Of a stretch of 38,917 nucleotides of DNA, positions 15,314-32,805 are shown piece after piece. The position numbers and the translations under genes are program-made. This stretch comes from Chloroflexota bacterium (GTDB taxonomy: Bacteria; Chloroflexota; Dehalococcoidia; UBA2979), in the NCBI GenBank assembly GCA_009840965.1, contig VXMT01000126.1, positions 1 through 38,917 of the forward strand, in the 5' to 3' direction. The notes below the pieces were generated by a model. That model was not told the origin of the DNA and searched no databases. It saw nothing but the letters and a program-made list of their open reading frames with translations. Position 1 is the stretch's first letter. Each line of letters begins with the position of its first letter.

Positions 15314-15350
15314 ACGATCCCCTTTCGCGCCGCGCCGGGCGGTTGCCCGA

Positions 15351-15764: not shown

Positions 15765-15792
15765 GTGAAGTCCCTCCGCTCGCGCTCACCCG

Positions 15793-16986: not shown

Positions 16987-17011
16987 ATACACCTCCGAAC
17001 GGGGCCCGCGC

Positions 17012-17913: not shown

Positions 17914-17926
17914 CTTACGATGTAAG
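17914..17926. promoter_or_regulatory. Palindromic operator, site 1
   Basis: CTTACGATGTAAG between the divergent LLM and SDR genes. Confidence 0.8.
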
Positions 17927-17993
17927 CTCGGCCACGCTACGGGAGGGCCAATGGGCCGTCAAGCGGCGGCCGCCGGTGATTGAGGACTGGACC

Positions 17994-18806
17994 ATGCAAG
18001 AGCTGGCTGGACGGGTGGCCGCAATCACCGGCGCTGCGAGCGGCCTTGGCGAGGGCATCGCCCGCGCCTGTCAGCAGGCGGGGATGCGACTCGTGCTCGG
18101 CGACATCGACGGCGAGAGGCTCGAGCACGTCGCGTCCGCGCTCCGGGCGGCGGGCGCCGAGGTGGTCGCAGCCCCGACCGACGTGTCCGATGCGGCGTCG
18201 TTCGAGGAGCTGGCCGCTCGCGCGTACGAGGCGTTTGGCGAGGTGAACGTGCTTTTCAACAATGCCGGGGTGATGCGTGTCGGCACCATCGAGGAGTCAA
18301 CGGACAGCGATTGGCGCTGGCTCCTCGACGTGAACCTGCTGGGGCCGGTGCACGGGATCCAGGCCTTCCTCCCGCGGATGCGCGAGCAGGAGGGCGACGC
18401 CCACATCGTGAACACGGCCTCGATGGCCGGCGTCGTGGCCCTGCCCACGAGCCCGAGCAACGTGTCCTACTGCGCCTCGAAGTTCGCCGTCGTTGGACTG
18501 TCGGAGGTGCTGCGCGAGGAGGTCGCGCCGCACGGGATCGGCGTCTCGGTCATCTGCCCGGGCCCGGTCCAGACGAGGATCTTCCAGTCCGAGCGCAACC
18601 GGCCGGAGCGGTACGGTGGCCCGGAGCAGTCGGGCGTGGCGGCGCTGCACGACGACGAGCGGATGGACCCGCGGGAGTGCGGGCAACGCATCCTGCGCGG
18701 CCTGCAATCGGGACACTTCTACATCTTCACGCACCAGCAGCGGCATCGTGAGCGGATCGAGCAGCGGTCCCGGGAGATGCTCGCGGACTTCGAGGGCCTG
18801 GGCTGA
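17994..18806 (+). CDS. Short-chain dehydrogenase/reductase
   Basis: Start trimmed to ATG 17994 (GAGGA RBS); TGAASGLG, NNAG, YCASK. Confidence 0.94.
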   Translation: MQELAGRVAAITGAASGLGEGIARACQQAGMRLVLGDIDGERLEHVASALRAAGAEVVAAPTDVSDAASFEELAARAYEAFGEVNVLFNNAGVMRVGTIEESTDSDWRWLLDVNLLGPVHGIQAFLPRMREQEGDAHIVNTASMAGVVALPTSPSNVSYCASKFAVVGLSEVLREEVAPHGIGVSVICPGPVQTRIFQSERNRPERYGGPEQSGVAALHDDERMDPRECGQRILRGLQSGHFYIFTHQQRHRERIEQRSREMLADFEGLG

Positions 18807-18825
18807 GCGAGCCCGGCGCTCAGCC
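18801..18825. terminator. Hairpin at a convergent gene junction
   Basis: GGCTGAGCG-7nt-CGCTCAGCC; the arms contain both stop codons; no U-tract. Confidence 0.4.
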
Positions 18826-19743
18826 GGAACTCGATGCTCCGCTCTGGCCGGGCCTGAGCTCGACGCCCGCGCGTTCCTCCTGAAGCTTGAAGAAGATGTT
18901 CGAGTCGAGATCGCCCCAGCCGCGCACGACCGCCTCCGTCATGTCCTGCGCTGCGAGCGCCGCATGCGCCATCGGCACGTCGTACTCGTGCGCCAGCTCG
19001 GTGGCGAGCGTGTGGTCCTTCCGGGACAGGACGAGCGCGAAGCTCGGCGGGTCGTAGCTGTCCTGGAAGACGGTCTCCGTGATCCCGCGCCTGAGGAAGT
19101 TCCCCTGCCCGAGCGAGCCTTCCACCAGCGCCGTGTGCAGCGCCGTCACATCCACGCCGGCCTTCACGCCGAGCGTGAGCCCCTCCGCCATCGACATGCG
19201 CATGCAGAGCAGGATCATGTTGTGGACGAGCTTCGCCACGCTCCCGGCTCCGATGTCACCCACGCGCGAGACCTTGTCGCCAAGCTGCGCGAGCACGGGC
19301 CGCACCCGCTCGAACACCTGGATGTCGCCCCCGACCATCACCGCGAGCGTGCCCGCCTCGGCGCCGGCCACGCCGCCGCTCACCGGCGCGTCGAGCACGT
19401 GGACGTCGTGCTCGGCGTAGACGGCGTGCACCTCGCGGATCAGCGTCGGTGAGCTGGTCGACAGGTCGACGTACACGTCGCCCTGCGAGATGCCCTCGAG
19501 GACGCCGCCGCTGCCCAGCGCCACCTCGCGCACCTCGGGCGGGCCGGGGAGCGAGGTGAGGACCACCTCGCTGGCCTCGGCAACGGCGCGCGGGCCGTCG
19601 CCCCACGAGGCGCCGAGCTCCAGGTGGCGCGCCGCGGCGTCCTCGCGCGCGTCGTACACGGTGACCTCGTGGCCGCCCGCGATGACGTTGGCCGCCATCC
19701 CGCCGCCCATGTTGCCAAGACCGATAAACCCCACACGCATCAT
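18820..19743 (-). CDS. NAD(P)-dependent beta-hydroxyacid dehydrogenase (3-hydroxyisobutyrate dehydrogenase family)
   Basis: VGFIGLGNMG, DAPVSGG, GTLAVMVGG, catalytic AKLVHN. Confidence 0.93.
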   Translation of the reverse strand: MMRVGFIGLGNMGGGMAANVIAGGHEVTVYDAREDAAARHLELGASWGDGPRAVAEASEVVLTSLPGPPEVREVALGSGGVLEGISQGDVYVDLSTSSPTLIREVHAVYAEHDVHVLDAPVSGGVAGAEAGTLAVMVGGDIQVFERVRPVLAQLGDKVSRVGDIGAGSVAKLVHNMILLCMRMSMAEGLTLGVKAGVDVTALHTALVEGSLGQGNFLRRGITETVFQDSYDPPSFALVLSRKDHTLATELAHEYDVPMAHAALAAQDMTEAVVRGWGDLDSNIFFKLQEERAGVELRPGQSGASSSG

Positions 19744-19885
19744 GTGCCTCCGTCGCCTGCTTCGCGCCGAGGATGCTAAGGGCTAGCGACCACCAACGGC
19801 GTTGACCGGGAGTCACCGGCTTCGACGGCGCCGGCCCGCGGGCCCTGGCGCCCCTGCCGCGGGAGGATGGCGTCACACCGTCCGA

Positions 19886-21085
19886 TCACACCTGGTGGGC
19901 AACCACGCCTTCCGAGACCATCGTCGAGAACTCGGGCGCGACCTCCTCGGCGAAGCGCTGCAGTTGCTCCAGGATGACGGCCCTGGGCAACCCGATCGGA
20001 TGCCCGATCCCGATTCGGTCGATTCCGGGATAGCGTTCCTCGAAGGCCTTCAGCCCCTCGGTCACCTGCTCGGCAGTGCCACAGAGCGTGCTCCCGCTCT
20101 CGATCGACGCCTCGACGGTCGGCAGGCCCGCTGCAGGGGCGAGCGCCGGGTCCGCCATCTGCTCGAGCTGCTCGTCGGAGAGCGTGCGGATCAATCGCAG
20201 TGGGCCGAACATCTTCACGTTCTCCTCGAAATACGGTCGGAGCTCGTCAATCGCCTGCTCGGCGGTGTCGGCGATGTGGACGTGGAAGTTGACGGCGAGG
20301 TTCTCGCCGAGCTCGGTCTCGATGCCGGCGCGCTCGTGGGCGGCCTGCCAGGCGCGCACGACGGGCTCCATCGTTCCGCTCGCCGCAACGCCTCCCCCCG
20401 TCATCGCCTTGATGCCGTGCTTCACCATGAAGTCAAGACCCCGCTCCGTGACACCCTGCACGGGCTGCCAGCACTCGACGGGCAGCGCGCGCGGCCGTGG
20501 CACAAGCGTGAGCGTTTCGAGCTGGTAGCCGCGGTACGGCACCCGGGGCGGGAGGTCGTAGTACTTGCCATGGTGCGAGAACGAGCGCTCGTTGAAAGCC
20601 TTGAGCAGGACTTCCACTTGCTCTTCGAAGAGGTCGCGGTTCGAGGCCTGATCGAGCAGCGGCGAGCCGAACGTCTCGACCTCGCGCGTGTGGTAGCCGC
20701 GGCCGACTCCCATCACGACGCGCCCACCAGTGAGGTGATCGACCATTGCGTAGTCCTCGGCGAGACGGAGCGGGTGCCACATCGGCGTGATGTTGAACGC
20801 GCAGCCGAGGCGAATCCGCTCCGTCACATGCGCGAGGTGAAGGTTCATGATGAGGAGGTTGGGGACGCACTCGTAGCCTTCGGGCTGGAAGTGGTGCTCG
20901 GCGCCCCAGAACGTGTCGAAACCGAGACGATCGAGGAGTCTGGCGATGTCCTCCGCCTTCTCGAGGGCCGCCGCCAGATCCTCGTCGCTGTACGACCGTT
21001 CGTTCACCGGGGTACCGGCGTAGCCGACCGTCTCGCGGTCCATATCGACGTGGCCGGTGAACAAACTGTCGAAGAAGCGAATCAT
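19886..21085 (-). CDS. LLM-class flavin-dependent monooxygenase (LuxA-like)
   Basis: Start trimmed to MIRFFDSLF (ATG 21085, GGAGG RBS); WGAEHHFQPEG, WHPLRLAEDYA, GVGRGY. Confidence 0.92.
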   Translation of the reverse strand: MIRFFDSLFTGHVDMDRETVGYAGTPVNERSYSDEDLAAALEKAEDIARLLDRLGFDTFWGAEHHFQPEGYECVPNLLIMNLHLAHVTERIRLGCAFNITPMWHPLRLAEDYAMVDHLTGGRVVMGVGRGYHTREVETFGSPLLDQASNRDLFEEQVEVLLKAFNERSFSHHGKYYDLPPRVPYRGYQLETLTLVPRPRALPVECWQPVQGVTERGLDFMVKHGIKAMTGGGVAASGTMEPVVRAWQAAHERAGIETELGENLAVNFHVHIADTAEQAIDELRPYFEENVKMFGPLRLIRTLSDEQLEQMADPALAPAAGLPTVEASIESGSTLCGTAEQVTEGLKAFEERYPGIDRIGIGHPIGLPRAVILEQLQRFAEEVAPEFSTMVSEGVVAHQV

Positions 21086-21160
21086 GGCGAAGGAACCTCC
21101 CGGCTTCCTGCCCACCCGCGCCGTGCGCGTCGAGGGACAGGTCGATGTGCGCTCCTGTCT

Positions 21161-21175
21161 GCTTACAGTGTAAGC
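21161..21175. promoter_or_regulatory. Palindromic operator, site 2
   Basis: GCTTACAGTGTAAGC, with an extra half-site GTAAGC at 21185-21190, in a divergent intergenic region. Confidence 0.85.
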
Positions 21176-21274
21176 TCGCCACTTGTAAGCTCCCGGCTGC
21201 ACGCTTGTCAAGGGCGGCTGCGCTTGCGGCGGGCTCGCGGGCGGGATCGTGCCGCCCAGGTTGCAAGGCACTGT

Positions 21275-21289
21275 GCTTACGCCGTAAGC
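21275..21289. promoter_or_regulatory. Palindromic operator, site 3
   Basis: GCTTACGCCGTAAGC about 47 nt upstream of ATG 21336. Confidence 0.85.
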
Positions 21290-21335
21290 TCGCGGCGCGG
21301 TGCAACGCGCTCCGACGGCATGTGAGGTGTGAACC

Positions 21336-22463
21336 ATGAGAGCCGGCGTCGTGCTCTACACGCAGAACCCCGGCGACTTTGAGCGCTTCGCGGAGCGCGG
21401 CCCCGGACCGCCCCCTGTCGCCGACTCGCAGGCGTACGACGAGGAGCTGGCGCTCGGCGAGCTCGTGGAGCCGCTGGGGTTCGACTCGCTGTGGTGCGTC
21501 GAGCACCACTTCACGCCGATCAATCTCACGCCGAACGCGCTCCAGTTCCTGACGTTCTTCGCGGGGCGCACGCGCCGCATCGACTTCGGGACGATGGTGG
21601 TCGTGCTGCCCTGGCACAACCCGATTCGCGTCGCGGAGGAGGTCTCGATACTCGACAACCTCCTCGAGGGCCGGAAGCTGACGATCGGTGTCGGCCGGGG
21701 TGCGGCCCGCCGGGAGTTCGACGGTCTCCAGATCGCGATGGGGGAGTCGCGGGACCGATTCAAGGAGGGTCTGGCGTTCCTCCGCGGTGCGCTGACCAAC
21801 GCGCAGTTCACGCCTGAGGGGCAGTTCTACAGCGGGCCGCAGGTCGAGGTGCGCCCGCGGCCGCGCTCAAGCGACCTCACGGACCGGATGTACCTCGCCG
21901 GCGTCAGCCCGGAGACGCTGCAGATCGCGGCGGACGAGGATCTGGGGCTGCTGCTGCTCGGTCAGAAGCCGTGGCGCGACTACCCCGAGGACATCGCGCG
22001 CTACCAGGCGATTCGCGCCGAGCACGGCTGGGGCCCGCGCTGGCCGACGATCGTGCTGCCGGTCGTCTGCTCCGAGTCGGAGACCGACGCGGAGGAGCGC
22101 GCGCAACGGCACTTCGGCGAACAGCAGGACAGCACCACGGTCCACTACGAGTTCGGAGACGCCGAGCACTTCCGCGCCGCCGGCAACTACCAGCACTACG
22201 TGCGCATCGCCGAGGCGTTCGAACGCAAGGGCGAGGACGACGTCAGGCGGGACGCGTTCAAGTCGCAGATCTGGGGTACTCCCGAGCAGTGCATCGAGAA
22301 GATCGAGAACGTCCGGAAGATGACCGCCGCCGGCGAACTGGTGATGGCCTTCAAGTTCGGCAAGATGACCGGCGAGGAGGCGCTCGCGAACATGCGGCTG
22401 TTCGCCAGCGAGGTGCTGCCGTACGTCAAGGCGATGCCGGACGAGCCCACCTGGGAGGGCTAG
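21336..22463 (+). CDS. LLM-class flavin-dependent monooxygenase (LuxA-like)
   Basis: GFDSLWCVEHHF, LPWHNPIRVAEE, GVGRG, WGTPEQC, LFASEVLP; GAGGTG RBS. Confidence 0.93.
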   Translation: MRAGVVLYTQNPGDFERFAERGPGPPPVADSQAYDEELALGELVEPLGFDSLWCVEHHFTPINLTPNALQFLTFFAGRTRRIDFGTMVVVLPWHNPIRVAEEVSILDNLLEGRKLTIGVGRGAARREFDGLQIAMGESRDRFKEGLAFLRGALTNAQFTPEGQFYSGPQVEVRPRPRSSDLTDRMYLAGVSPETLQIAADEDLGLLLLGQKPWRDYPEDIARYQAIRAEHGWGPRWPTIVLPVVCSESETDAEERAQRHFGEQQDSTTVHYEFGDAEHFRAAGNYQHYVRIAEAFERKGEDDVRRDAFKSQIWGTPEQCIEKIENVRKMTAAGELVMAFKFGKMTGEEALANMRLFASEVLPYVKAMPDEPTWEG

Positions 22464-22590
22464 GCCAGGCCCACCGATCGACGGGCCGCGAGGTCGAGCC
22501 CGTTTACGCGCTATCGGCCGACGTATGCTCGGCTGAGCCGGACCTGCGGCGCGCTCGCGGCGAGTGCGCCGGCACGGAGGTGGTAGCGCC

Positions 22591-23589
22591 ATGCTGACCG
22601 GAGAGAAGGTGCTGATCACGGGGGCGTCCGGACAGATCGCCCTGCCGATGGCCAGGAAGCTCGCGCGGGACAACGAGGTCTGGGGCGTCGCCCGGTTCAG
22701 GGCGCCGCAGCCGAGCGTCACGCGAGGCCCCGCGCGCATCGCCGACCTGCGGTCCGAGCTGGAGTCGGCCGGCGTGACGACCCTCGCGCTCGACCTCGCC
22801 GGGGGCGACCTTTCAACGTTGCCCGACGACTTCAGCACGGTGATCCACATGGCCGTCTCGATCGAGCCGACGCCCGACTACGACCATGCCCTGCGCATGA
22901 ACGCCGAGGTGACGGGGGAGCTGATGGCGCACTGCCGGAGTGCGCGCGCGTTCCTCCACATGTCGTCGTGCTCGGTCTACCGGCCGGCCGCCGATCCCGC
23001 GTACCCGTTTCGCGAGACCGACCCGCTGGGTGAAGCCGGCACGCCCTTCGCACCGACCTACTCGGTCTCGAAGATCGGGGGCGAGGCGGTCGCCCGCTTC
23101 TGTGCCCGCCAGTTCGGCCTGCCCACGACCATCGCGAGGATGAACGTCTCGTACGGCGCGAACGGCGGGATGCCTGCCTACATGGTCGAATCGATGCTCG
23201 CCGGCAGGCCCGTGCGCCTGCGCCCGCCCGGCCCCAACTACTACACGCCGATCCACGAGGACGACATCATCGACCAGGTCGGCAAGCTGCTGGACGTCGC
23301 CGCGGTCCCTGCCGAGATCGTGAACTGGGGCGGCGACGACATCGTCTCGGCCGAGGAGTGGATCGCCTACCTCGCCGAGCTCACCGGCCTGGAGGCGCGC
23401 ATCGACTACCGGGACGACTGGATCACGAGCGGGCCAACCGAGAACTCGAAGCGGATCGGTCTCATCGGCGCCTGCCGGGTGGGCTGGCGGGAGGGGATGC
23501 GCAGGATGGTCGAGGAGCGCCACCCCGAGCTGCAGCTCCGCGACGGCCCGGCCGACGCTGCCCAATCGGCCCGCACGGCCGGGAATTGA
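22591..23589 (+). CDS. NAD-dependent epimerase/dehydratase (extended SDR)
   Basis: KVLITGASGQIA, SSCSVY, YSVSK; GGAGGT RBS before ATG 22591. Confidence 0.9.
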   Translation: MLTGEKVLITGASGQIALPMARKLARDNEVWGVARFRAPQPSVTRGPARIADLRSELESAGVTTLALDLAGGDLSTLPDDFSTVIHMAVSIEPTPDYDHALRMNAEVTGELMAHCRSARAFLHMSSCSVYRPAADPAYPFRETDPLGEAGTPFAPTYSVSKIGGEAVARFCARQFGLPTTIARMNVSYGANGGMPAYMVESMLAGRPVRLRPPGPNYYTPIHEDDIIDQVGKLLDVAAVPAEIVNWGGDDIVSAEEWIAYLAELTGLEARIDYRDDWITSGPTENSKRIGLIGACRVGWREGMRRMVEERHPELQLRDGPADAAQSARTAGN

Positions 23590-23629
23590 CAGGCCGTGAC
23601 GGACGCCCCTACCATGCTTACGCCGTAAA
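23586..23629 (+). promoter_or_regulatory. Sigma70 promoter followed by operator site 4
   Basis: TTGACA (23586)-18nt-TACCAT (23610); CTTACGCCGTAAA at 23617-23629. Confidence 0.8.
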
Positions 23630-23661
23630 CAAGCTTGATAGCGAGGTCCTGGGGGAGTGCC

Positions 23662-24852
23662 GTGAAGTTCGGGCTCTTCTACGAGATCTCCGTGCCGCGG
23701 CCCTGGGACCGCGAGAGCGAACGCACCGCGTACGAGAACAACATCGAGCAGATCAAGCTGGCGGACGAGCTCGGGTTCCAGACGGTCTGGGTCGTCGAGC
23801 ATCACTTCTTCGAGGAGTTCAGCCACAGCTCCGCGCCCGACCTGTTCCTCACGGCCGTCGCTCGGGAGACGAGCCAGATCAGGCTGGGACACGGGATCGC
23901 CGTCTGCGTCCCGGAGGTCAACAGCGCGGTGCGGCTGGCCGAGCGAGCCGCGACGCTCGACCTCCTCTCCGGGGGGCGGCTCGAGTTCGGTACCGGACGC
24001 GCGACTTCCTGGCTGGAGCTGGCCGGGTTTGGCGCCAACCCGGACGAGACGAAGCGTTCCTGGGACGAGTTCGTCCGAACCATCCCGAAGATGTGGACGA
24101 ACGAGCGGTTCGGCTACGACGGGCAGTACGTGAAGCTGCCGCGGCGGGCGGTGCTGCCGAAGCCCTATCAGCGGCCTCACCCGCCTCTCTGGGTCGCGGC
24201 CGGCAGCGCCGGCACCGAGATCGACGCCGCCGAGCGCGGGCTCGGCGCGCTCTTCCTCTCGTTCATGGGCTACGAACGGCTGGCCGGGCGGATCGCTGCC
24301 TACCGCGAGCGCATCGCGGCCTGCGATACGCCTGCCGGCGCGTTCATCAACAACAAGACGACGATGGTGAACTTCCTCTACTGCCACGAGGACGCGGACC
24401 ACGGCGTGCGGTTGGGGAAGCAAGTCGCCGCACGCTACGGCGAAGGGTCCGGCCAGGCGTTCGGGGTCAGCGAGATCTACCCGACACCCGCCTATTCATC
24501 GGCCGGCGATATTCGGGCCGGCCTCGTGAACGCGGCCGGCAATGATCGGGCCGCGCCCTCGAGGGACGACCACTGGACGCTCCGGCGCGCGCTTGAGTCC
24601 GAGGACGCGCAGCCGCCTCCCGGCCTCTGCGCGGGCGACCCGGAGCAGATCATCGAGGCGCTCAGGGGCTGGGAGGAAACCGGCGTCGACGAGGTCAGCT
24701 TCCTCCTGAACGCGAGCGAGATGATTCCTCACGAGGACGTCATGGAGAGCCTCCGCCTGTTCGGGCGCGAAGTGATGCCCTGCTTCGAGACACCGGAGAC
24801 ACCGCGCGGCTCGGCAGCGGCGGTTGAGGCGCCGGTCGCCGGTGCGCGATGA
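23662..24852 (+). CDS. LLM-class flavin-dependent monooxygenase (LuxA-like)
   Basis: GTG 23662 after GGGGGAG; MKFGLFYEI, WVVEHHFFEEFSHSSAP, LDLLSGGRLEFGTGR, PKPYQRPHPPLW. Confidence 0.93.
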   Translation: MKFGLFYEISVPRPWDRESERTAYENNIEQIKLADELGFQTVWVVEHHFFEEFSHSSAPDLFLTAVARETSQIRLGHGIAVCVPEVNSAVRLAERAATLDLLSGGRLEFGTGRATSWLELAGFGANPDETKRSWDEFVRTIPKMWTNERFGYDGQYVKLPRRAVLPKPYQRPHPPLWVAAGSAGTEIDAAERGLGALFLSFMGYERLAGRIAAYRERIAACDTPAGAFINNKTTMVNFLYCHEDADHGVRLGKQVAARYGEGSGQAFGVSEIYPTPAYSSAGDIRAGLVNAAGNDRAAPSRDDHWTLRRALESEDAQPPPGLCAGDPEQIIEALRGWEETGVDEVSFLLNASEMIPHEDVMESLRLFGREVMPCFETPETPRGSAAAVEAPVAGAR

Positions 24853-25628
24853 GCGACCCTCGCGGCCGCCATCGCGGCGCCACGGGGGCCGGGCCGCCGG
24901 TCGTTGACCCGAGTGCGCACGCCGAGGCGATCACGTCCTCGCACGTGGAGGTGCTGAACGTCGCGATCGAGGTCGACGATCGGCTGGTCGCCCCGCTGCT
25001 CCCCGCGCCCCTGCGCCTGACCCTGCCGCCGATGGTCACGTTCGTGATCTGGCGCTTCCACGAGAGCAGCCTGGGCGCGTTCACGCTCGCGCAAACCAGG
25101 GTCACGACCAGGCTCAAGGTGCGCTCGCGAGGTTTGGTTCTCGGCTCCTACTTCCACGGCGCGCCCGCAGCCGCCGAGGAACTCCGCACGCACTGGGGTT
25201 TCGCATGCCTCCCGGGCGACATCCGGCTGGTGCGCCATCACGATGAGATTCGCGGGGCCGTCGAGGCCGGGGGGAAGGTGGCGCTGGAGGTCGTGGGGCG
25301 CGCACCCCACGCGATCGGCCCCGACGACCTCAGGGAGATGTCGTCCCTGAATCCGGTCCGCGCCGTCACATCCGAGGGGGAGCAGGCACGACTCCTCCAA
25401 GTGGATACGGAGTTCCGCGTGGAGGCCGCAAGCCGCAGCATCCAGCTCGAAGTCCAGGCGTTCAACGGAAGCGCGTGGAACGCACCCGACATCCGGCAGG
25501 AGTACGGCGTCCGCGCCCTCCACTACCACTGCGAGATGCGGCTCCCGCCACCGCGGTACCTGTTCGATCCGATGCTGACCTCGGAGCAGGAGAGCGAGCA
25601 GATCGAGCGGCGACTCCCCGTCGCCTAG
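24849..25628 (+). CDS. Acetoacetate decarboxylase-like superfamily protein
   Basis: LLPAPL, SSLGAFTLAQ, LRTHWGF pattern; ATGA-coupled to the LLM gene; family recognised by eye. Confidence 0.65.
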   Translation: MSDPRGRHRGATGAGPPVVDPSAHAEAITSSHVEVLNVAIEVDDRLVAPLLPAPLRLTLPPMVTFVIWRFHESSLGAFTLAQTRVTTRLKVRSRGLVLGSYFHGAPAAAEELRTHWGFACLPGDIRLVRHHDEIRGAVEAGGKVALEVVGRAPHAIGPDDLREMSSLNPVRAVTSEGEQARLLQVDTEFRVEAASRSIQLEVQAFNGSAWNAPDIRQEYGVRALHYHCEMRLPPPRYLFDPMLTSEQESEQIERRLPVA

Positions 25629-25668
25629 CGTCGCCACGGGCGCGCTCGCTCGCGCCGGCGGCCCGAAC

Positions 25669-25697
25669 TTGACAGGCATACGCTGTAAACATACAAG
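25669..25697 (+). promoter_or_regulatory. Promoter with operator site 5 in the spacer
   Basis: TTGACA 25669-25674; CATACGCTGTAAA 25677-25689; weak -10 TACAAG at 17-nt spacing. Confidence 0.7.
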
Positions 25698-25743
25698 TGA
25701 CCGGCGCGAGAACCCGCGCGAGCACAACGTACAGGGAGGCCCC

Positions 25744-26511
25744 ATGTCTGAGATCCGTATTGAGGTCAGCGACTTCATCGCCGTGGTGACCCTCGACAAT
25801 CCGCCGGTGAACGCCATGGACCCCGACTGGGACCTGATGGGCATCATGGACTCCCTGTCCGAACGTGACGACGTCCGGGTCGCCGTCCTGACGGGCGCCG
25901 GGGACCGCGCATTCTGCGCGGGGGTCGACGTGAAGAAGGCTGCCGAGGCGGCCTCGGACGAGCCGGGCGCCCAGACGGCGGGCAACCGCCGCGGCCGGGA
26001 GACGTTCTACTCCGTCATGGAGTGCGCGGTCCCGGTGATCGGTGCGATCAACGGGCATGCCCTCGGTGCGGGACTCGCCATCGCCTCCTCGTGCGACTAC
26101 ATCATCGCCTCCGAGCGCGCCACGTTCGGGCTGCCCGAGATCGACGTCGGACTGCTCGGCGGTGCGCGCCACTTCCAGCGCATGTTCCCGCAGGGAGTCA
26201 CTCGCTGGGCGAACTTCACCGCGCAGCGCATTGACGCCGCCGAGGCGCATCGCCTGGGCTCCGTGCAGCGCGTGGTCCCCCACGAGCAACTGATGGATGA
26301 GGCGATGTCCGACGCACAGATCATCGCCGCCAAGATGCCGATCGGCCTGAAGATGGCGAAGGCGAATCTCAACCTCATCGAGGACATGGACCTCCGCAAC
26401 GGGTACCGCTACGAGCAGACCCAGACCAGCATCCTCGTCAAGACCGAGGACGCACTGGAAGCGAAGGTGGCGTTCGCCGAGAAGCGCGAGCCGGTCTTCA
26501 GGGGACGCTGA
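25744..26511 (+). CDS. Enoyl-CoA hydratase/isomerase family protein
   Basis: LDNPPVNA, FCAGVD, PVIGAINGHALGAG, FGLPEIDVG, AFAEKREPVF; GGGAGG RBS. Confidence 0.94.
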   Translation: MSEIRIEVSDFIAVVTLDNPPVNAMDPDWDLMGIMDSLSERDDVRVAVLTGAGDRAFCAGVDVKKAAEAASDEPGAQTAGNRRGRETFYSVMECAVPVIGAINGHALGAGLAIASSCDYIIASERATFGLPEIDVGLLGGARHFQRMFPQGVTRWANFTAQRIDAAEAHRLGSVQRVVPHEQLMDEAMSDAQIIAAKMPIGLKMAKANLNLIEDMDLRNGYRYEQTQTSILVKTEDALEAKVAFAEKREPVFRGR

Positions 26512-26512
26512 G

Positions 26513-26543
26513 CGGCGGGCCCGAGCACCCCTCGGGCCCGTTG
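26513..26543. terminator. Hairpin between convergent genes (probable bidirectional terminator)
   Basis: CGGGCCCGAG-CACCC-CTCGGGCCCG, a perfect 10-bp stem. Confidence 0.6.
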
Positions 26544-26550
26544 ACGGTGC

Positions 26551-27666
26551 CTAGAGGACGGCGTCCGCGATGCGCCGGTTGCTCGCGTTGCCGTCGCCGA
26601 GGAGCAGCTCGTTCGTTTTGACCCGCTTCATGAAGAAGTGCAGGTCGTGCTCCCACGTGTAGCCGATCGCGCCATGCACGTGGATCGCCTGCGTCGCGAC
26701 GAACGTGCCGGGGACGGCGGTCGCGCCCTTCGCCATTCGCACGGCGACGCTTCGCGCCTCGGCGTCGCCGTCGACCGTGAGCGCGGCGTAGTAGACGGCG
26801 GCGGTCATGCGCTCGAACGCGCTCGCCATCTGCGCCACCCGCACCTTCACCGCCTGATAGGAGCCGATCGGCCTCCCAAACTGCTCCCGGTCCTTCGCGT
26901 AGTCCGCCGTCATCTGCACCATCCGGCCGCAGGCGCCGACGCTCTCGGCTGCCAGCGCGAACCGCAGCTCGTCGGTGGCCTGCTCGACCGCCGCGTCCGC
27001 GGCGCCGTCGCCGTAGAGGGCTGCGCTAGCGGGCAGCTCGGCCCCGTCGAGGTTGGCGCGATAGCGCCGTACCGTCTGGTCCATCGAACCGAGGTCTTCC
27101 CACGTCAGGCCCGCCGCGTCCGTGGGGACGACGAACAGCCCGCGCCCTCCGGCGGGCAGTCGCGCCTCCATCAGGCACAAGTCCGCTCGCGGCCCGAACG
27201 CGACGAAGTCGTGGCGGCCGTTCAGCACCCAGCCGTCGGCGAATCGCGTCGCGACGGTCGCGGGCTGCTCGCGGTTCCACTCGTCCGGCGATCCCGAGAG
27301 CGCGAGCGTGGCGGTCCGGGCGCCCGACGCGAGCGAGGCCAGGAGCTCCTCGCGAGCGGGGGCGGGGCTCGCGGCAACCGCGCGCGCGGCCAGCAACGTG
27401 GTCACCAGCGGCAAGAACAGCGGGCAGGCGCCCGCCTCCATCGCCACCACCATCAGCTCCTCGGGGCCGAGGCCCGCGCCGCCGTGCTCCTCCGGGACGG
27501 TCAGGCCCGGCCAGCCGGCGGCGGCCAGCTCCTCCCAGAGCCCGGGGTCCGACGCGTCGCCGTCGTACGCGGTCGCTCGGACATGGTCGAGGTCGCACGA
27601 GCCGCGCAGCAGCGCGCGCAAGCCGTCGCGGAGCATGACCTGGTCCTCGCTGAGTTCGAAGTCCAT
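26551..27666 (-). CDS. Acyl-CoA dehydrogenase, short (ChsE1/FadE28-like) subunit
   Basis: MDFELSEDQ, PEEHGGAG, REQFGRPIGSYQAVK, HGAIGYTWEHDLH; alternative GTG start at 27678. Confidence 0.92.
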   Translation of the reverse strand: MDFELSEDQVMLRDGLRALLRGSCDLDHVRATAYDGDASDPGLWEELAAAGWPGLTVPEEHGGAGLGPEELMVVAMEAGACPLFLPLVTTLLAARAVAASPAPAREELLASLASGARTATLALSGSPDEWNREQPATVATRFADGWVLNGRHDFVAFGPRADLCLMEARLPAGGRGLFVVPTDAAGLTWEDLGSMDQTVRRYRANLDGAELPASAALYGDGAADAAVEQATDELRFALAAESVGACGRMVQMTADYAKDREQFGRPIGSYQAVKVRVAQMASAFERMTAAVYYAALTVDGDAEARSVAVRMAKGATAVPGTFVATQAIHVHGAIGYTWEHDLHFFMKRVKTNELLLGDGNASNRRIADAVL

Positions 27667-27674
27667 GGCTCGCC

Positions 27675-28868
27675 TCACGTGCCCCGGGGCAGGCCGAATG
27701 CGCGTTCAGCGATGATGTTGCGCTGGATGTCGACAGTGCCGCCCGGCACGGTGATGACTCGCGACGCCAGCCAGTCCGACGTCCACTCCCCGTCGTCGAG
27801 CCACGCGGGGGACTCCGTCATCGCCGCGAGCTCCGGGCCGGCGATGTCGGCGGCGAGGTCCGCGATGTTCTGGGCGGTTTCGGACCAGTAGAACTTCATG
27901 TACGAGGTCTCCTCGGCGGGGAGGTTGCCTCGCAGGTACCACGTCAGGTAGCGGAGGTTGGCCAGGCGCATGAGCTGGACGTCGGCGTAGGTGCTGGCCA
28001 GGCGTTCCCGGATGTGCGGCACGTCGATCAGGAGCTTCCCCGCGCGGCGCGTGACCTGCGCGTAGCCGCGGATCTGCCGCCACTGCCGTTCCAGCCGCAC
28101 GACGACCGAAAGCGTGAACAGCCCCCGCTCCCAGGCGAGGGTCCGCATCGCGACCTGCCAGCCCTCGTTGACGTTCCCGAGCACGTTGTCGCGAGGCACG
28201 CGCACATCGTCGAAAAAGACCTCGTTGAACTCGGCCTCCCCGTTGATCTGCTTGATCTCGCGCACGGTGATGCCGGGGGAGCGCATGTCGACGATTAGGT
28301 AGGAGATCCCGCGATGCTTCGGCGCCTCCTGATCGGTGCGTACAAGCACGGCGCCCCAGTCCGCGTACTGGGCGCTGTTGCCCCAGATTTTCTGGCCGTT
28401 CAGCACCCACTCGTCGCCGTCAAGCGTTGCCCGCGTTTGCAGTCCGGCGAGGTCGGAGCCGGCGTTCGGCTCGGAGAAGCCCTGGTACCACACCTCCTCA
28501 CCCTGAATGATCGGGGCGAGGTAGCGCGACTGTTGCTCCGCGGTGCCGACCTCAAGGATCGTCGGGCCGATGTACTGCTGCCCGGCGCTGTTCGGCAGGG
28601 AGGGCGCGTCCGCTTTCGCGAGCACCTCGTAGTAGATCGCCAGCTCCATCAGCGTCGCGCCGCGGCCGCCGTACTCGACGGGCCAGGAGACGCCGAGCCA
28701 GCCACCCGATCCCAGCAGCCGTTCCCACTCGCGCCGGGCGGCCCAGCTCTCGTCCGCCGGGAGCAGCCGGGTGCGGCGGGCCGTCCACTCGTCCCGCAGG
28801 TTCGCTCGCACCCATTCGGAGAACTCGCGCTCGAAGCGCGCCTCGGAGTCGGACAGGCTCAGATCCAC
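27675..28868 (-). CDS. Acyl-CoA dehydrogenase (ChsE2/FadE29-like) subunit
   Basis: Start trimmed to GTG 28868; WPVEYGG, QGFSEPNAGSDLA, NGQKIW, FNEVFFDDV, LAWER, GGTVDIQRNIIAER. Confidence 0.93.
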   Translation of the reverse strand: MDLSLSDSEARFEREFSEWVRANLRDEWTARRTRLLPADESWAARREWERLLGSGGWLGVSWPVEYGGRGATLMELAIYYEVLAKADAPSLPNSAGQQYIGPTILEVGTAEQQSRYLAPIIQGEEVWYQGFSEPNAGSDLAGLQTRATLDGDEWVLNGQKIWGNSAQYADWGAVLVRTDQEAPKHRGISYLIVDMRSPGITVREIKQINGEAEFNEVFFDDVRVPRDNVLGNVNEGWQVAMRTLAWERGLFTLSVVVRLERQWRQIRGYAQVTRRAGKLLIDVPHIRERLASTYADVQLMRLANLRYLTWYLRGNLPAEETSYMKFYWSETAQNIADLAADIAGPELAAMTESPAWLDDGEWTSDWLASRVITVPGGTVDIQRNIIAERAFGLPRGT

Positions 28869-28931
28869 GGACGACCACCTTGCTGCGGAGCAGCTCCCGC
28901 GCCTGGCGCGGCGACCGCCCCACGGCACGTA

Positions 28932-28944
28932 CTTACAGTGTACG
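28932..28944. promoter_or_regulatory. Palindromic operator, site 6
   Basis: CTTACAGTGTACG, 64 nt upstream of the acyl-CoA dehydrogenase pair. Confidence 0.75.
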
Positions 28945-28998
28945 CGCCGCACCTTGTACCAGAGCGCGGCGAGCGCCTCAAGTCGGGAACGGCGGAGT

Positions 28999-30315
28999 CT
29001 AGGTGGCGACCTCGACTGCTCCGCTTCCGATCAGCGACTCGATCTCCTCCGCCGAGTAGCCGGCCTCGCGCAGCACCTCGGACGTGTGCCTCCCGAGGAC
29101 GGGCGAGGGGGCGCGAACCGCGGCCGGGGCGTCGGAGAGCTTCACGAGCGGGGCCACGATGCGCTGCGGCCCCGTGAGCTCGTGCGTCACCTCGCACATC
29201 ATCCCGTCGTCGAGGACCTGGGGATCGTCCGCGACTTCCTCGGGCAGGTTCACCGGCGCCACGGGCACGCCGACGCTCTGCAGCGCATCGATCCAGTACG
29301 CGACCGTCCCCCCGAGGAACTTCTCGCGAATGATGCGCTTCCACTCCGCGGCGCTCGCGATGTTCTCCGGATCCAGCGAGTCGTAGTCCGGGTCGTCGGA
29401 GTTCTCGTCCTCGATCCCGAGCACGCTGCGGATGGCGTCCCGGTTCGGCTTCGTCAGGGCGCCGAGGATGATCGCTCCGTCCTCGACGCGGTACCCGCTG
29501 TAGTAGAGGGCGAACGTGGTGCCGAGGGCGTGCCGCTCTTCGCGCGCCGCGATGATCTCCTCGTAGGTTGCGCCGACGGCGCGCAGCTCGCTGATCCGCT
29601 CCATCGTTGGGTCGCGCATCGTGCGGTCGGTGATCGGCTCGCGCATGACGGTCGGGCCCTGCATGAAGAGCGCGGACCGCAACAGCGACCCGGAGACCTT
29701 CTGACCGCGGCCGGTGCGCTCGCGATGGTAGAGCGCGGCGCAGACGCCCATCGAGGTGCCCACCGCCGTGATGTAGTCGGCGAGCGCGACCCCGCCGATC
29801 TCCCGAGGCGCTCCGGCGTCGTCCACCTTGCCGTTGCCGGCCATCAGGCCGGAGTAGCCCTGGACCGCGACGTCCGACGCTCCCTGGAATGCCTGCGGGC
29901 CCTGGTCCCCCCACCCCGTGCTCTCCACGTAGATCAGGTCGTGCTTGAGTGAGCTCAGCGTCTCGTAGTCGATCCCGAGTCGCTCCACGACGCCAAGGCG
30001 GTAGTTGACGACGACTACGTCGATGCTCGGCATCAGGCGGTGCACGACGGCCCGCCCCTCGGCCGTCTGAAGGTCGACGACCAGACTGCGCTTACCTCGG
30101 TTGAGCGTCTGGAAGAGTTTGCTCTCGCCCGGAACGACGCTGCCGTTCCTCCGCTGCGACTCGCCGCCGGGGGGTTCGACCTTGATGACGTCGGCGTCCA
30201 GGTCGGCGAGGTTGGCGCCGCACACCGGGCCGGCGATGACCTGCGAGAAGTCCAGCACACGGACGCCGTACAACGGCCCCCTGCTCGTCGGTGGCTCGAT
30301 CCGTGCATCCGCCAT
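28999..30315 (-). CDS. Class III CoA-transferase
   Basis: ATG 30315 after GGGGGAGG; GPLYGVRVLDFSQVIAGP, LNRGKRS, ALADYITA, SPVLGRHT. Confidence 0.93.
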   Translation of the reverse strand: MADARIEPPTSRGPLYGVRVLDFSQVIAGPVCGANLADLDADVIKVEPPGGESQRRNGSVVPGESKLFQTLNRGKRSLVVDLQTAEGRAVVHRLMPSIDVVVVNYRLGVVERLGIDYETLSSLKHDLIYVESTGWGDQGPQAFQGASDVAVQGYSGLMAGNGKVDDAGAPREIGGVALADYITAVGTSMGVCAALYHRERTGRGQKVSGSLLRSALFMQGPTVMREPITDRTMRDPTMERISELRAVGATYEEIIAAREERHALGTTFALYYSGYRVEDGAIILGALTKPNRDAIRSVLGIEDENSDDPDYDSLDPENIASAAEWKRIIREKFLGGTVAYWIDALQSVGVPVAPVNLPEEVADDPQVLDDGMMCEVTHELTGPQRIVAPLVKLSDAPAAVRAPSPVLGRHTSEVLREAGYSAEEIESLIGSGAVEVAT

Positions 30316-30357
30316 GGCCGTGGACCTCCCCCGTGCTCGGAGCGCGCGCAGGCGCAG

Positions 30358-30370
30358 CGTACACCGTATG
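30358..30370. promoter_or_regulatory. Palindromic operator, site 7
   Basis: CGTACACCGTATG, 43 nt upstream of ATG 30315. Confidence 0.7.
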
Positions 30371-30491
30371 CTCGCCAATGCTGCGGGGTGAGGCCGCTAC
30401 CCGGTCGCGTTCAGCAGGTGCTGTGCTTCGCCTGGACGGCGCCCCTGCGTACGGCCGTCCCCGACCGCGCTCGGCCCCCTCGAGGCCGGCG

Positions 30492-31184
30492 TCAGGGCTG
30501 CGCGGCCACGCCGGCTTCGCGGGCCGCGAGTGGTTCGGACGCGCCGTGAAGGTAGTCCTCCAGCCCGCGCAGGATCACCCGCATCCCGAACTCGAACTCG
30601 AGGTCGCGATCGACGCGCCGGAAGTACTGGCGGTGCTCGGAAGCGACCGGCATCTCGGTCTCGCTCATCTCCGCGAAGCCCCGGGCAATGTCCCGGCCGT
30701 GCTTGCCGATGAAGTAGTCGCCGAGGATGCACCCGGTCTCGAAGTTCCCGATCAGGTGGAACGCGTGCTCGACCATCTCCCCGCGGAATCCGGCCTGCGT
30801 GAGCACGGACATCTGCCACTCGATATTCGCCATGCCGGCTTCGGTCAGCATTCCGTGTGAGACGCTGATCGGGATTACCTCGCGGTGCCGGAGCATCGCG
30901 TCGCGACGCCTGATCGCGGACTCAAGGATCGCATCGGCCCAGTGCTCGACCGGCGGTTGCTCCGCCTCGCCCTGGACGAGGTTGACGACGCCCCGGAGCA
31001 CGTCGTCCTTGTTCTCCACGTGGCGGTAGAGCGACATCGCCTCGACGTTCAGCGTGGCGGCGAGCTTACGCATGCTGAGCGCGGCGGCGCCGTGCTCGTC
31101 GACGAATTCGAGGGCCGCGCGGAGTATCCGTTCGCGCGAGAGCGGGCGTTGGCGTGGAGCGATGCTCGGACCCCCGTTCGGCAT
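30492..31184 (-). CDS. TetR/AcrR family regulator with a TetR_C-type domain
   Basis: HTH LSRERILRAAL...LSMRKLAATLNVEAMSLYRHVENKDD; C-terminal EFEFGMRVILRGL; start taken at ATG 31184 (uncertain). Confidence 0.93.
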   Translation of the reverse strand: MPNGGPSIAPRQRPLSRERILRAALEFVDEHGAAALSMRKLAATLNVEAMSLYRHVENKDDVLRGVVNLVQGEAEQPPVEHWADAILESAIRRRDAMLRHREVIPISVSHGMLTEAGMANIEWQMSVLTQAGFRGEMVEHAFHLIGNFETGCILGDYFIGKHGRDIARGFAEMSETEMPVASEHRQYFRRVDRDLEFEFGMRVILRGLEDYLHGASEPLAAREAGVAAQP

Positions 31185-31330
31185 GTCCCCGGCGCCGGCC
31201 AGCGGACGGTCATGCTCAAGTGCAGACGGTGTCTCTCGAATCGTGCCACCCCCATGGCCACGGGACAAGCCAGCGACCCCGACGGTTGCACGATGCCAGG
31301 TTCGTCCTCCCTCGGTTCAATCCTCCCGGG

Positions 31331-32611
31331 CTACGCGACCACGCGGTCCGAGCGCAGCTGACCGATCTCCTCGTCGGAGAGCCCGGCTTCGCGAAGCACC
31401 GTGTCCGTGTCCGCGCCGAGGGCCGGGGATGCTCGCCGCACCCCGGTAGGCGTCTTCGAGAGCGTGACCAGCGGGCCGACGACCCGCTGCAGGCCCGTGA
31501 CGGCGTGCTCCACCTCGGCCATCAGCCCCATCGCCTCGATCTGAGGATGGTCGGAGAGCTCTTCCGGCAGGTTGACGGGCCCGACGGGAACGCCGGCCTC
31601 GGTGAAGCGCTCGATGATCTCGGCGGAGGTTTGCGAGGCGAACGCCTCGCGGATGTGCGCGACGCGCGTCTCCGCGTACGCGATGCTGTCGGGGTCGAGG
31701 GCGTCGAAGTCCGGGTCGTCGCTCGGATCATCGGTGATGCCCAGCAACTCCCGGACCCCCGCGCGCGTCCGCGGGGTGACCGCGCCGAGCTGCACGACGC
31801 CGTCCTTCGTCGCGTAGGCCATGTGGAAGCCGCGCCAGGCCGCGGAGTCCGAGCCAACCGCCGAGCGCGCCGCAATCACCTCCTCGTAGCCTCCCCCACG
31901 CTCGCGCACCCGCCGAACGTCCTCGAGCATCGGGTCGCGAACGACGGCGTCGCTCACCGGCTCGCGCATCACCTCGTAGGGCTGGAGCGCGATCGAGGAT
32001 CGCAGCAGCGACGTCTCGACCTTCTGGCCCTCGCCGGTCATCGCGCGGTGGTAGAGGGCGGAGAGCACGCCGGCGGCCCCGGCCAGGGCGCACGACAGGT
32101 CGCCCAGCGGTGCGCAATCCACGGTCGCCGGCTGCCCCCACGCGTCGAGCTTCCCCTCACCGGCGATCAGCCCCGCGAACGCGGTCGCCACGGGGTCGAC
32201 CGACCCGTTGCTCGCGAGGGGCCCGTCGGGGCCCCAACCGGTGAGCTCGCAGTAGATGATGTCGGGACGCAGCTCCCGGAGCTGCTCGTAGTCGACGCCA
32301 AGCCGCCGCGCCAGCCCATAGCGATAGTTCATGGTGACGATGTCGAAGGCGGGTACCAGGCGATGCACGAGGGCGCGCCCGGCCTCCTGCTGGAGATCGA
32401 CCACGATGCCTCGCTTGTTGCGGTTGAGCGACTGAAACCGCTTGGCCTCGCCGGGCACCACGGAACCCCAGAGGCGATGCGGATCTCCCTCCGGACGTTC
32501 CACCTTCACGACGTCGGCGCCAAGGTCGGCGAGGATGCAGCCGAGGAACGGCGCCGCGACGATCTGCGAGAACTCCAGGACCCGTACGCCGTGCAGCGGG
32601 CCGTTCGCCAT
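31331..32611 (-). CDS. Class III CoA-transferase (paralogue of 28999..30315)
   Basis: ATG 32611 after GAGGAGG; GPLHGVRVLEFSQIVAAP, LNRNKRG, PLGDLSC, SPALGADT. Confidence 0.93.
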   Translation of the reverse strand: MANGPLHGVRVLEFSQIVAAPFLGCILADLGADVVKVERPEGDPHRLWGSVVPGEAKRFQSLNRNKRGIVVDLQQEAGRALVHRLVPAFDIVTMNYRYGLARRLGVDYEQLRELRPDIIYCELTGWGPDGPLASNGSVDPVATAFAGLIAGEGKLDAWGQPATVDCAPLGDLSCALAGAAGVLSALYHRAMTGEGQKVETSLLRSSIALQPYEVMREPVSDAVVRDPMLEDVRRVRERGGGYEEVIAARSAVGSDSAAWRGFHMAYATKDGVVQLGAVTPRTRAGVRELLGITDDPSDDPDFDALDPDSIAYAETRVAHIREAFASQTSAEIIERFTEAGVPVGPVNLPEELSDHPQIEAMGLMAEVEHAVTGLQRVVGPLVTLSKTPTGVRRASPALGADTDTVLREAGLSDEEIGQLRSDRVVA

Positions 32612-32758
32612 GGCAATCCTCCTCGAGTTGCCGGACACCTCAGGCGGTGGAGCGACGTTACGCCGTCCCCGGGCCCCCGTCACGGGCACGGGCCGACATC
32701 GGGGAGCCGTCCGGGGTGCGCATGCGCCCATGATCCGCCAGACCTTGGCGATGGGTAC

Positions 32759-32805
32759 TTGACAACCCGGCGGCCAAGCTTACATTGTACGCCTTACACT
32801 GTACA
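32759..32805 (+). promoter_or_regulatory. Sigma70 promoter with tandem operator sites 8 and 9
   Basis: TTGACA 32759-32764; CTTACATTGTACG 32779-32791 (contains the -10-like TACATT); CTTACACTGTACA 32793-32805. Confidence 0.82.

Follow-up and report, generated by a model that had tools for sequence, protein, structure and literature searches.

In the present study, we describe a 38,917-nucleotide stretch of DNA from an uncultured Chloroflexota bacterium (Dehalococcoidia, UBA2979; GenBank assembly GCA_009840965.1, contig VXMT01000126.1, positions 1 to 38,917 of the forward strand), hereafter called the window, and a set of short palindromes within it. Between positions 14390 and 38030, the window carries an island of 21 called genes, among them six luciferase-like oxidoreductases (LLM; F420/FMN), four family-III CoA-transferases and one gene for a TetR-family regulator (30492-31184, minus strand). 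Nine palindromes with a common TAC-N3-GTA core lie in the spacers between these genes, and comparative sequence evidence indicates that they are very probably the operators of the island's own TetR-family repressor, whose binding is predicted. The window (contig C18, 67-71% GC) belongs to a draft genome, G000, of 2,690,422 bp in 296 contigs, which is 87.7% complete with 5.4% contamination. The nine sites, together with the promoter-like -35/-10 pairs adjoining them, are as follows.

Operator 1, 17914..17926, CTTACGATGTAAG, in the divergent spacer between an LLM gene (start 17851, minus strand) and a short-chain dehydrogenase (SDR) gene (start 17994, plus strand); promoter-like pair on the minus strand, TTGACG-17-TAGCGT, ending 7 nt before the site.
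Operator 2, 21162..21174, CTTACAGTGTAAG, 77 nt upstream of an LLM gene (start 21085, minus strand); pair on the minus strand, TTGACA(21211)-18-TACAAG(21187-21182), ending 7 nt before the site.
Operator 3, 21276..21288, CTTACGCCGTAAG, 48 nt upstream of an LLM gene (start 21336, plus strand); pair on the plus strand, TTGCAA(21261)-18-TAAGCT(21285-21290), with the -10 inside the site.
Operator 4, 23617..23629, CTTACGCCGTAAA, 33 nt upstream of an LLM gene (start 23662, plus strand); pair on the plus strand, TTGACA(23586)-18-TACCAT(23610-23615), the site beginning 2 nt past the -10.
Operator 5, 25677..25689, CATACGCTGTAAA, 55 nt upstream of an enoyl-CoA hydratase gene (start 25744, plus strand); pair on the plus strand, TTGACA(25669)-17-TACAAG(25692-25697), with the spacer filled by the site.
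Operator 6, 28932..28944, CTTACAGTGTACG, 64 nt upstream of an acyl-CoA dehydrogenase gene (start 28868, minus strand); pair on the minus strand, TTGAGG(28981)-17-TACAAG(28958-28953), ending 8 nt before the site.
Operator 7, 30358..30370, CGTACACCGTATG, 43 nt upstream of a CoA-transferase gene (start 30315, minus strand) and downstream of the TetR stop codon.
Operators 8 and 9, in tandem, 32779..32805, CTTACATTGTACG, one base, CTTACACTGTACA (14-bp period), in the divergent spacer between the CoA-transferase/TetR operon (start 32611, minus strand) and an ATP-binding cassette (ABC) uptake operon (start 32854, plus strand); pair on the plus strand, TTGACA(32759)-16-TACATT(32781-32786), with the -10 inside operator 8.

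The clustering of these sites far exceeds chance. The TAC-N3-GTA core was expected 0.74 times on average in 100 dinucleotide-preserving shuffles of the window, the maximum count being three and no shuffle reaching the nine observed, and nine of the 52 copies in the whole draft genome lie on this contig. Outside the core, the sites have C at -6 and G at +6 and mostly T at -5 and A at +5, and the central triplet starts with a purine and ends with a pyrimidine in all nine; the consensus is CTTAC-RNY-GTAAG, often extended to GCTTAC-N3-GTAAGC. A symmetrised weight matrix was built from the nine 21-mers. The scores of the nine sites themselves (19.1-29.4 bits) are circular, since the matrix was fitted to them, and therefore the informative part of the scan is the absence of other matches: no further position above 12 bits was observed in the rest of the 2.69-Mb draft. 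A relaxed search of the window, which tolerated a single mismatch in the core and no more than one in the flanks, also revealed no additional sites. On another contig of the draft (C212, 2327-2363), two CGTAC-N3-GTAC-type cores, CGTACCATGTACG and CGTACTTCGTACA, are spaced 24 bp apart, both below the matrix threshold. With corrected start codons, all nine sites are intergenic and distributed over seven spacers, in a window of which 13.3% is non-coding (about 10.9% after adding the gene at 14390-15313), and each lies 33-77 nt from the nearest start codon that it faces. The original prediction had listed nine 13-mers, beginning at 17914, 21162, 21276, 23617, 25677, 28932, 30358, 32779 and 32793, as intergenic sites with an invariant core upstream of starts, and these sequences, positions and placements were all recovered. 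It had also reported TTGACA-anchored promoters at three loci, which were located at 23586, 25669 and 32759, and control of about 20 genes from 14.4 to 38 kb, in good agreement with the 21 counted herein. Its statement that the TetR is the only regulator in the window likewise held: a single regulator domain, that of the TetR, was detected among 38 open reading frames (ORFs) scanned against Pfam.

The relation of the sites to promoter-like elements suggests how they might act. Seven -35/-10-like pairs adjoin the sites in six of the seven spacers, and the placement of the site relative to them takes three forms. The spacer is filled by the site at 25677, the -10 is overlapped at 21276 and 32779, and the sites at 17914, 21162, 23617, 28932 and 32793 begin 1-8 nt past the -10, where transcription should start. 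Three of the seven pairs are those with the TTGACA boxes at 23586, 25669 and 32759; of the remaining four, three are read on the minus strand and the fourth on the plus strand of the 21086-21335 spacer. In alignment with a second genome of the genus, G001, the promoter hexamers and the operators stand out as conserved islands within the spacers. The hexamer TACAAG recurs as the predicted -10 of three operator-linked promoters (25692-25697, plus 21182-21187 and 28953-28958 on the minus strand) and is conserved in G001.

One could ask whether the 13-mer is simply part of a promoter cassette or a small copied repeat, in which GTAAGCT would provide the TAnnnT of a -10 box. At four sites, the core is followed by TAAGCT, the hexamer predicted as the -10 at 21285-21290, and the motif is AT-rich in a genome of 69-72% GC. 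However, the 80-nt flanks of the sites are no more alike than random DNA (median identity 0.31 vs 0.31 for random 80-mers; maximum 0.41 vs a random 95th percentile of 0.40), and the nine sites are not part of a repeat element. Furthermore, the conservation is two-fold symmetric with free central bases, the site lies past the -10 or in the spacer at several promoters, and the same palindrome is found upstream of TetR relatives in unrelated genomes. An origin of the sites as a repeat or cassette was rejected on the flank comparison, and we regard this explanation as the least credible of those considered.

The conservation of the sites was evaluated in relatives of the organism. Among 25 relatives searched with a 17.7-kb island query, a syntenic island was observed only in G001 (DNA identity about 85-92%), the others giving scattered single-gene paralogues with 66-75% DNA identity. 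This query returned 538-949 first-look candidates per genus genome, many of them single-gene paralogues, which implies very large LLM, CoA-transferase, hydratase and SDR families in the genus. The TetR itself is present in two of 19 genus genomes, G000 and G001, with an orthologue 90% identical in the latter, and a search of G000 gave no other protein of this TetR type, the only match being the TetR itself. In G001, nine sites occupy the same seven spacers, although these are 42-91% identical with long indels, and none of the 54 TAC/GTA positions differ, so that 18 of 18 half-cores are kept. The 11 differences within sites fall in the central triplet (six) or at outer positions 12-13 (five), and the central changes keep a purine at the first and a pyrimidine at the third position. 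Operator 1 is kept as CTTACAATGTAAG, operator 2 reads CTTACGCTGTAAG, operator 3 is identical, and operator 7 is conserved beside a large insertion. Matches to CTTACNNNGTAAG with at most one mismatch number 10 in the whole of G001, seven of them in the island, and those in four genus genomes without the TetR are only scattered, most of them breaking the core. G001 also contains an insertion of about 1.7 kb between the fourth and third genes of the leftward unit of operator 1 (window 15335/15346) and insertions of 50-130 bp in four operator-bearing spacers (21086-21335, 25629-25743, 28869-28998 and 30316-30491), one of which is a run of GGGCCGTC-like tandem units adjoining operator 7.

The TetR protein (230 amino acids from the ATG at 31184) combines an N-terminal helix-turn-helix with a TetR_C_1 sensor domain. 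The TetR-type helix-turn-helix PF00440 matched residues 48-92 of a 258-amino-acid reading with 31.8 bits (cut-off 24), and PF02909 (TetR_C_1) scored 47.2 bits (cut-off 21). The closest solved relatives are ActR, TetR(B/D), 5ojx and SimR; the best full-length matches among solved structures were ActR (1.3e-19, residues 13-217) and TetR(B) (6.6e-17, residues 15-212). The scores for the tetracycline repressor equivalog NF010319 (86.5 bits, cut-off 265) and the mycofactocin regulator MftR2, NF038211 (48.1 bits, cut-off 285), are below the cut-offs, and by score the protein is neither a tetracycline repressor proper nor MftR2. In an alignment of nine sequences, the recognition helix (M50-S51-L52-Y53, H55-V56-E57-N58-K59-D60-D61, V62) is invariant, and by this helix we define herein a clade, 'MSLY-HVENKDD'. 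Identity to clade relatives is 52-70% in the DNA-binding domain and 20-28% in the sensor domain.

The relatives of this clade provide a major argument. In a genome collection with one genome per species, ten further loci encode relatives with 30-51% identity, and six of these loci (a Thermoleophilia metagenome-assembled genome (MAG), a Gaiellaceae MAG, an Actinomycetes MAG, Aureimonas endophytica and two other MAGs) contain two to four palindrome copies within about 110 bp upstream of the TetR gene, with one further core match elsewhere in the approximately 190 kb of flanks of the genome loci. A metagenome scan using the alignment of relatives as the query matched at least 597 stretches, 564 of which encode a relative; among the matches listed, 80 loci with 32-40% identity were taken. 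At least one site was observed within 200 bp upstream in 68 of the 73 metagenome loci having at least 150 bp of upstream sequence, and at least two sites in 55 of the 73. Over all 80 loci, the upstream zones (16,744 bp) contain 155 sites, compared with 14 in 352,976 bp elsewhere, i.e. 9.26/kb vs 0.040/kb. The family consensus pooled over 185 sites is t-a-a-R-C-T-TAC-R-N-Y-GTA-A-G-Y-t-t-a, and the commonest spacing of neighbouring sites is 13 bp start-to-start (29 of 94 pairs). One genome locus, L014, titled as a Methanoregulaceae archaeon MAG, is a 70% GC contig with a bacterial-type TetR, two operators and then a CarD-family gene; the contig appears to be bacterial and to have entered the archaeal MAG through binning.

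The gene neighbourhoods of the relatives were also surveyed. Of 44 upstream ORFs, 34 were scanned, after dropping 10 that were cut by the contig end or shorter than 150 amino acids (L029, L033, L036, L037, L039, L040, L049, L067, L075 and L099). The usual divergent neighbour is a zinc-type dehydrogenase/quinone-oxidoreductase-like gene: it was of the ADH_zinc_N type in 22 of the 34, DUF4386 in three, DUF4389 in two and another family in three, four having no Pfam match. No ADH_zinc_N partner gene, typical of the clade, is present in the window. The window system resembles the clade in recognition helix, operator consensus and the occurrence of tandem operators, whereas in the relatives one to four operators lie directly upstream of the TetR gene, and in the window nine are spread over 15 kb and the TetR gene is second in its operon. 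The sharing of a DNA-binding domain between proteins with unlike sensor domains and partner genes argues that the motif follows the DNA-binding domain and not the regulated genes.

The palindrome also resembles a characterised operator. SimR is the simocyclinone efflux repressor of Streptomyces antibioticus, with operators OX and OR and a solved structure (PDB 3zql; PMC3241653). The OX operator is TTCGTACGGTGTATGAA, crystallised as TTCGTACGGCGTACGAA; in the protein-DNA complex, G11 is read by Arg51, Met62 makes contacts with T12, A13 and C3, and the outer T1/T2 bases are stacked on by Tyr66 (PMC3241653). SimR matched the window TetR over residues 8-103 (E 4e-12). In an ungapped alignment, SimR Arg51 and Met62 correspond to R39 and M50 of the window TetR, and SimR S49, M50, S63, Y65 and K71 are conserved as S37, M38, S51, Y53 and K59, whereas Tyr66 and Tyr67 are replaced by Arg54 and His55. 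SimR is a TetR-family dimer with a 17-bp operator that shares the TAC-N3-GTA core and the purine-N-pyrimidine centre of the window sites (TTCGTAC-GGC-GTACGAA in SimR), and both systems place two operators in one divergent spacer; the SimR-type core with its odd central base is present in all nine window sites. The systems differ in the outer half-site, TTCG-TAC in SimR vs (A/G)CT-TAC in the window, and SimR has a longer N-terminal arm and controls one efflux-pump gene rather than a catabolic island. In other words, the core-reading residues are conserved and an outer-base residue is changed, matching the same core with different outer bases, and by core and contacting residues the window operator can be assigned to the SimR type. 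A comparison of residue and base across the clade, in which the helix could be parsed in 47 of 92 loci, gave G at -7 in 69% of the Arg54 group vs 35% of the Asn group, but the groups are too small for a conclusion and not independent, the Arg group comprising three loci including G000 and G001.

Another DNA-binding protein might recognise the palindrome, either a Bdellovibrio-type LexA or a regulator encoded outside the window. The same written consensus, TTAC-N3-GTAA, is reported as the LexA box of Bdellovibrio bacteriovorus (PMC3323433), proteins with a LexA_DNA_bind domain are encoded in G000, and 12% of the genome is missing. However, none of the five contigs with LexA_DNA_bind genes (C31, C35, C213, C254 and C117) contains a TAC-N3-GTA core, all strong sites are in one catabolic island and none at repair genes, the motif tracks the TetR clade across phyla, and the core of the palindrome is that of the SimR operator. 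LexA was rejected as the binder on the lack of cores on its contigs and the catabolic nature of the targets, and a different binder of either kind appears very improbable.

Three independent lines of evidence point to the resident TetR as the binder. First, relatives with the same recognition helix carry one to four palindromes within about 200 bp upstream, in other phyla. Second, the island, the TetR and the motif cluster are found together within the genus only in G000 and G001. Third, the SimR operator has the same core, and the contacting Arg and Met are conserved. The evidence that decides for this predicted binder is comparative. The enrichment, placement and conservation of the motif, its co-occurrence with this DNA-binding domain throughout the family and the identity of its core with that of the SimR operator are observed, while we infer the binding, the sign of regulation, the operon boundaries, the dimer stoichiometry and the inducer. 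The original prediction had proposed this TetR as the binder, a view that the upstream palindromes of relatives, the co-occurrence in the genus and the SimR operator core support. Of the checks it suggested, the genome-wide search for further motif copies gave no other position above 12 bits, and the footprints around orthologues and relatives are those given above (0 of 54 core differences in G001, and an upstream palindrome in 68 of 73 metagenome loci).

Several observations weigh against this interpretation. The promoter hexamers are consensus matches from two scans, one of them looser, and not demonstrated promoters. No recognisable -35/-10 pair adjoins operator 7 in the rule-based scan. 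The 146-bp spacer just upstream of the TetR gene (31185-31330) contains no site, unlike the norm of the family. The relatives' loci are not all independent, since they include near-duplicates (e.g. L023/L038, L071/L072 and L085/L095) and most come from soil-type metagenomes; the effective number of loci is thereby lowered, but the upstream enrichment is far too large to hinge on them. Five of the 73 metagenome loci (L051, L052, L055, L067 and L092) have no upstream core match, and four Microthrixaceae loci with an identical recognition helix have no site within 10 kb, which shows that the helix is not always accompanied by a nearby site. A relaxed search of the Microthrixaceae loci gave a single match, unrelated, at a distance of about 6.8 kb and shared by all four. 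Finally, extra sites or a second regulator could sit in the unassembled DNA of G000 (about 12% missing). In these Microthrixaceae MAGs (L015, L016, L019 and L020), the TetR relative lies inside an operon between methyltransferase and acetyl-CoA-synthetase-like genes, and a short CACTAG(T/G)G element just precedes its start codon.

The 21 genes that the operators might control were called from codon-position GC, inspection of start codons and Shine-Dalgarno sequences, and Pfam/NCBIfam matches, and are listed by unit.

Leftward unit of operator 1:
17012-17851, minus strand, F420-type LLM, start 17851, first gene of the unit (Pfam, NCBIfam).
15793-16986, minus strand, thiolase-like protein (Pfam).
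15351-15764, minus strand, DUF35/ChsH2-type OB-fold protein (Pfam).
14390-15313, minus strand, F420-type LLM, the sixth in the island (Pfam 190.8 bits; TIGR03560 277 bits, above cut-off).
Rightward from operator 1:
17994-18806, plus strand, SDR.
Leftward unit of operator 2:
19886-21085, minus strand, LLM.
18820-19743, minus strand, 3-hydroxyisobutyrate-dehydrogenase-like protein.
Rightward units of operators 3, 4 and 5:
21336-22463, plus strand, LLM.
22591-23589, plus strand, NAD-dependent epimerase/thioester-reductase-like protein.
23662-24852, plus strand, LLM.
24849-25628, plus strand, acetoacetate-decarboxylase-family protein.
25744-26511, plus strand, enoyl-CoA hydratase.
Leftward units of operators 6 and 7:
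28999-30315, minus strand, CoA-transferase III.
27675-28868, minus strand, acyl-CoA dehydrogenase.
26551-27666, minus strand, acyl-CoA dehydrogenase.
Leftward unit of operators 8 and 9:
31331-32611, minus strand, CoA-transferase III, first gene, followed by a 146-bp gap and the TetR gene.
30492-31184, minus strand, TetR-family regulator, second gene of the operon starting at 32611.
Rightward unit of operators 8 and 9:
32854-34725, plus strand, family-5 solute-binding protein.
34852-35805, plus strand, ABC permease.
35798-36751, plus strand, ABC permease.
36849-38030, plus strand, CoA-transferase III.

In the 14390..17851 minus-strand unit, the intergenic gaps are 25-37 bp, and we infer that its four genes form one operon. 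Two NCBIfam models, TIGR03619 (220 bits) and TIGR03560 (277 bits), matched in this unit above their cut-offs, and cut-offs of the F420 class were passed by two of the six LLMs of the island. The LLM gene at 14390-15313 extends the unit to 14.4 kb; its stop-to-stop frame continues into the next gene, and for this reason it had escaped the GC3 filter. The acyl-CoA dehydrogenase pair (26551-28868) shows likeness to the large and small subunits PimC/PimD, below cut-off. A second, paralogous minus-strand module is located at 3982-13980, with genes for an enoyl-CoA hydratase, a MaoC-like dehydratase, a DUF35 protein, a thiolase-like protein and two CoA-transferases, as well as a family-5 binding protein with two permeases; the palindrome is absent from this module, and the window shows no regulator gene for it. 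Neither of the two ABC systems has an adjoining ATPase gene, and none was observed elsewhere in the window. Between the S8 peptidase gene and the hydratase gene (2783-3981, about 1.2 kb), there is no convincing coding frame, and the ORFs tried gave no Pfam match.

Herein, we propose the following mechanism. Each operator would be occupied by one TetR dimer, and the tandem pair 32779/32793 by two adjacent dimers. Across the seven intergenic regions, eight or nine promoters would be masked at their -10 box, spacer or transcription start; sites in such positions over core promoter elements imply that the bound repressor would block RNA polymerase, leaving the 21 genes silent, i.e. the uptake genes, the oxidoreductases, the genes for CoA activation and beta-oxidation-like steps, and the repressor's own operon (CoA-transferase 32611-31331, then TetR). 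A small-molecule effector might bind the diverged C-terminal sensor domain and thus release the repressor from all sites at once.

It is conceivable, although unlikely, that the TetR binds the sites without being a simple repressor everywhere, acting as an activator at some and as a roadblock or without effect at others, e.g. operator 7. The lack of an adjoining -35/-10 pair at operator 7 is in line with this idea, as are the absence of a plus-strand promoter for the SDR gene at operator 1 recognisable by the rule used and the variable position of the site relative to the -10 (in the spacer, over the -10, or 1-8 nt past it). Nevertheless, six of the seven regions have a site on top of core promoter elements or of the point where transcription is expected to start, and the characterised relatives are repressors. 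This is the established role of TetR and ActR. SimR is likewise termed a repressor in the abstract of its report.

The nature of the effector may be considered in the light of other systems. ActR (Streptomyces coelicolor, PDB 2opt) and TetR(B)/TetR(D) have the same TetR_C_1 sensor domain and an LY-HV-NK recognition helix, but the tetO sequence is unlike the window operator. TetR and ActR each regulate an adjoining efflux or export gene, and ActR, TetR and SimR are named for the actinorhodin, tetracycline and simocyclinone systems, the ligands of which are polycyclic polyketides rather than acyl-CoAs. No efflux pump was found in the island, where the neighbours of the TetR gene are CoA-transferases and an ABC uptake system. 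A parallel in the arrangement is offered by MbdR of Azoarcus sp. CIB, where one TetR-family repressor controls several promoters of a degradation cluster based on CoA thioesters. KstR/KstR2 and PaaR are further TetR-family regulators of catabolic clusters; the operators of regulators of the MbdR/KstR/KstR2/PaaR type differ from the window operator, and their effector is known to be a CoA thioester. For the window TetR, the effector may be the substrate taken up by the transporter or an intermediate early in the pathway; the pathway metabolite of the original prediction, and an acyl-CoA in particular, is a candidate only. Judged from family names, the island would act on a bulky or alicyclic/branched carboxylate handled as its CoA thioester, as suggested by its many CoA-transferases and LLMs, the hydratase, the thiolase-like/DUF35 pair and the acyl-CoA dehydrogenase pair of heteromeric type.

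Mechanistically, the system is of a known kind and is unsurprising, being a TetR-family repressor with palindromic operators over promoters. Three features are new: the specific repressor-operator pair in an uncultured member of the Dehalococcoidia, with binding predicted; the scale, nine operators and 21 genes compared with one to four operators in relatives; and the family-wide operator rule. No description of a TetR with a CTTAC-RNY-GTAAG operator was found in the literature searched, a limited collection. In addition, we put forward a tentative hypothesis on origin, which we consider possible but rather doubtful. The clade, which would be very large and apparently uncharacterised, might have a fixed operator code, CTTAC-RNY-GTAAG, and normally form a minimal two-gene switch with a divergent quinone-oxidoreductase-type dehydrogenase. 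In the present island, the TetR unites the conserved DNA-binding domain with a sensor domain that has diverged strongly, and the operator might have spread to seven promoter regions, welding 21 genes, six luciferase-like oxidoreductase and four CoA-transferase paralogues among them, into one inducible module of an accessory island found in two of the genus genomes searched. This would represent the recent birth of a regulon by operator proliferation.

In Dehalococcoidia/SAR202-type genomes, luciferase-like monooxygenases, CaiB/BaiF CoA-transferases, short-chain dehydrogenases and hydratases form large families of paralogues with unknown substrates (PMC5395668); the term 'transcriptional regulator' does not occur in PMC5395668. 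A shared operator picks out the paralogues that would act together and names one protein whose ligand would identify the substrate. Since sequence alone fully defines the operator-repressor pair, tests in vitro are feasible with no need to culture the organism, and the pair could serve as a new orthogonal part or a biosensor scaffold. Moreover, the family-wide operator rule might make regulons predictable from sequence in many uncultured Actinomycetota and Chloroflexota. If operator proliferation is true, this island would provide the first cis-regulatory definition of a functional unit in the paralogue swarms of Chloroflexota, which are thought to act on recalcitrant organic matter.

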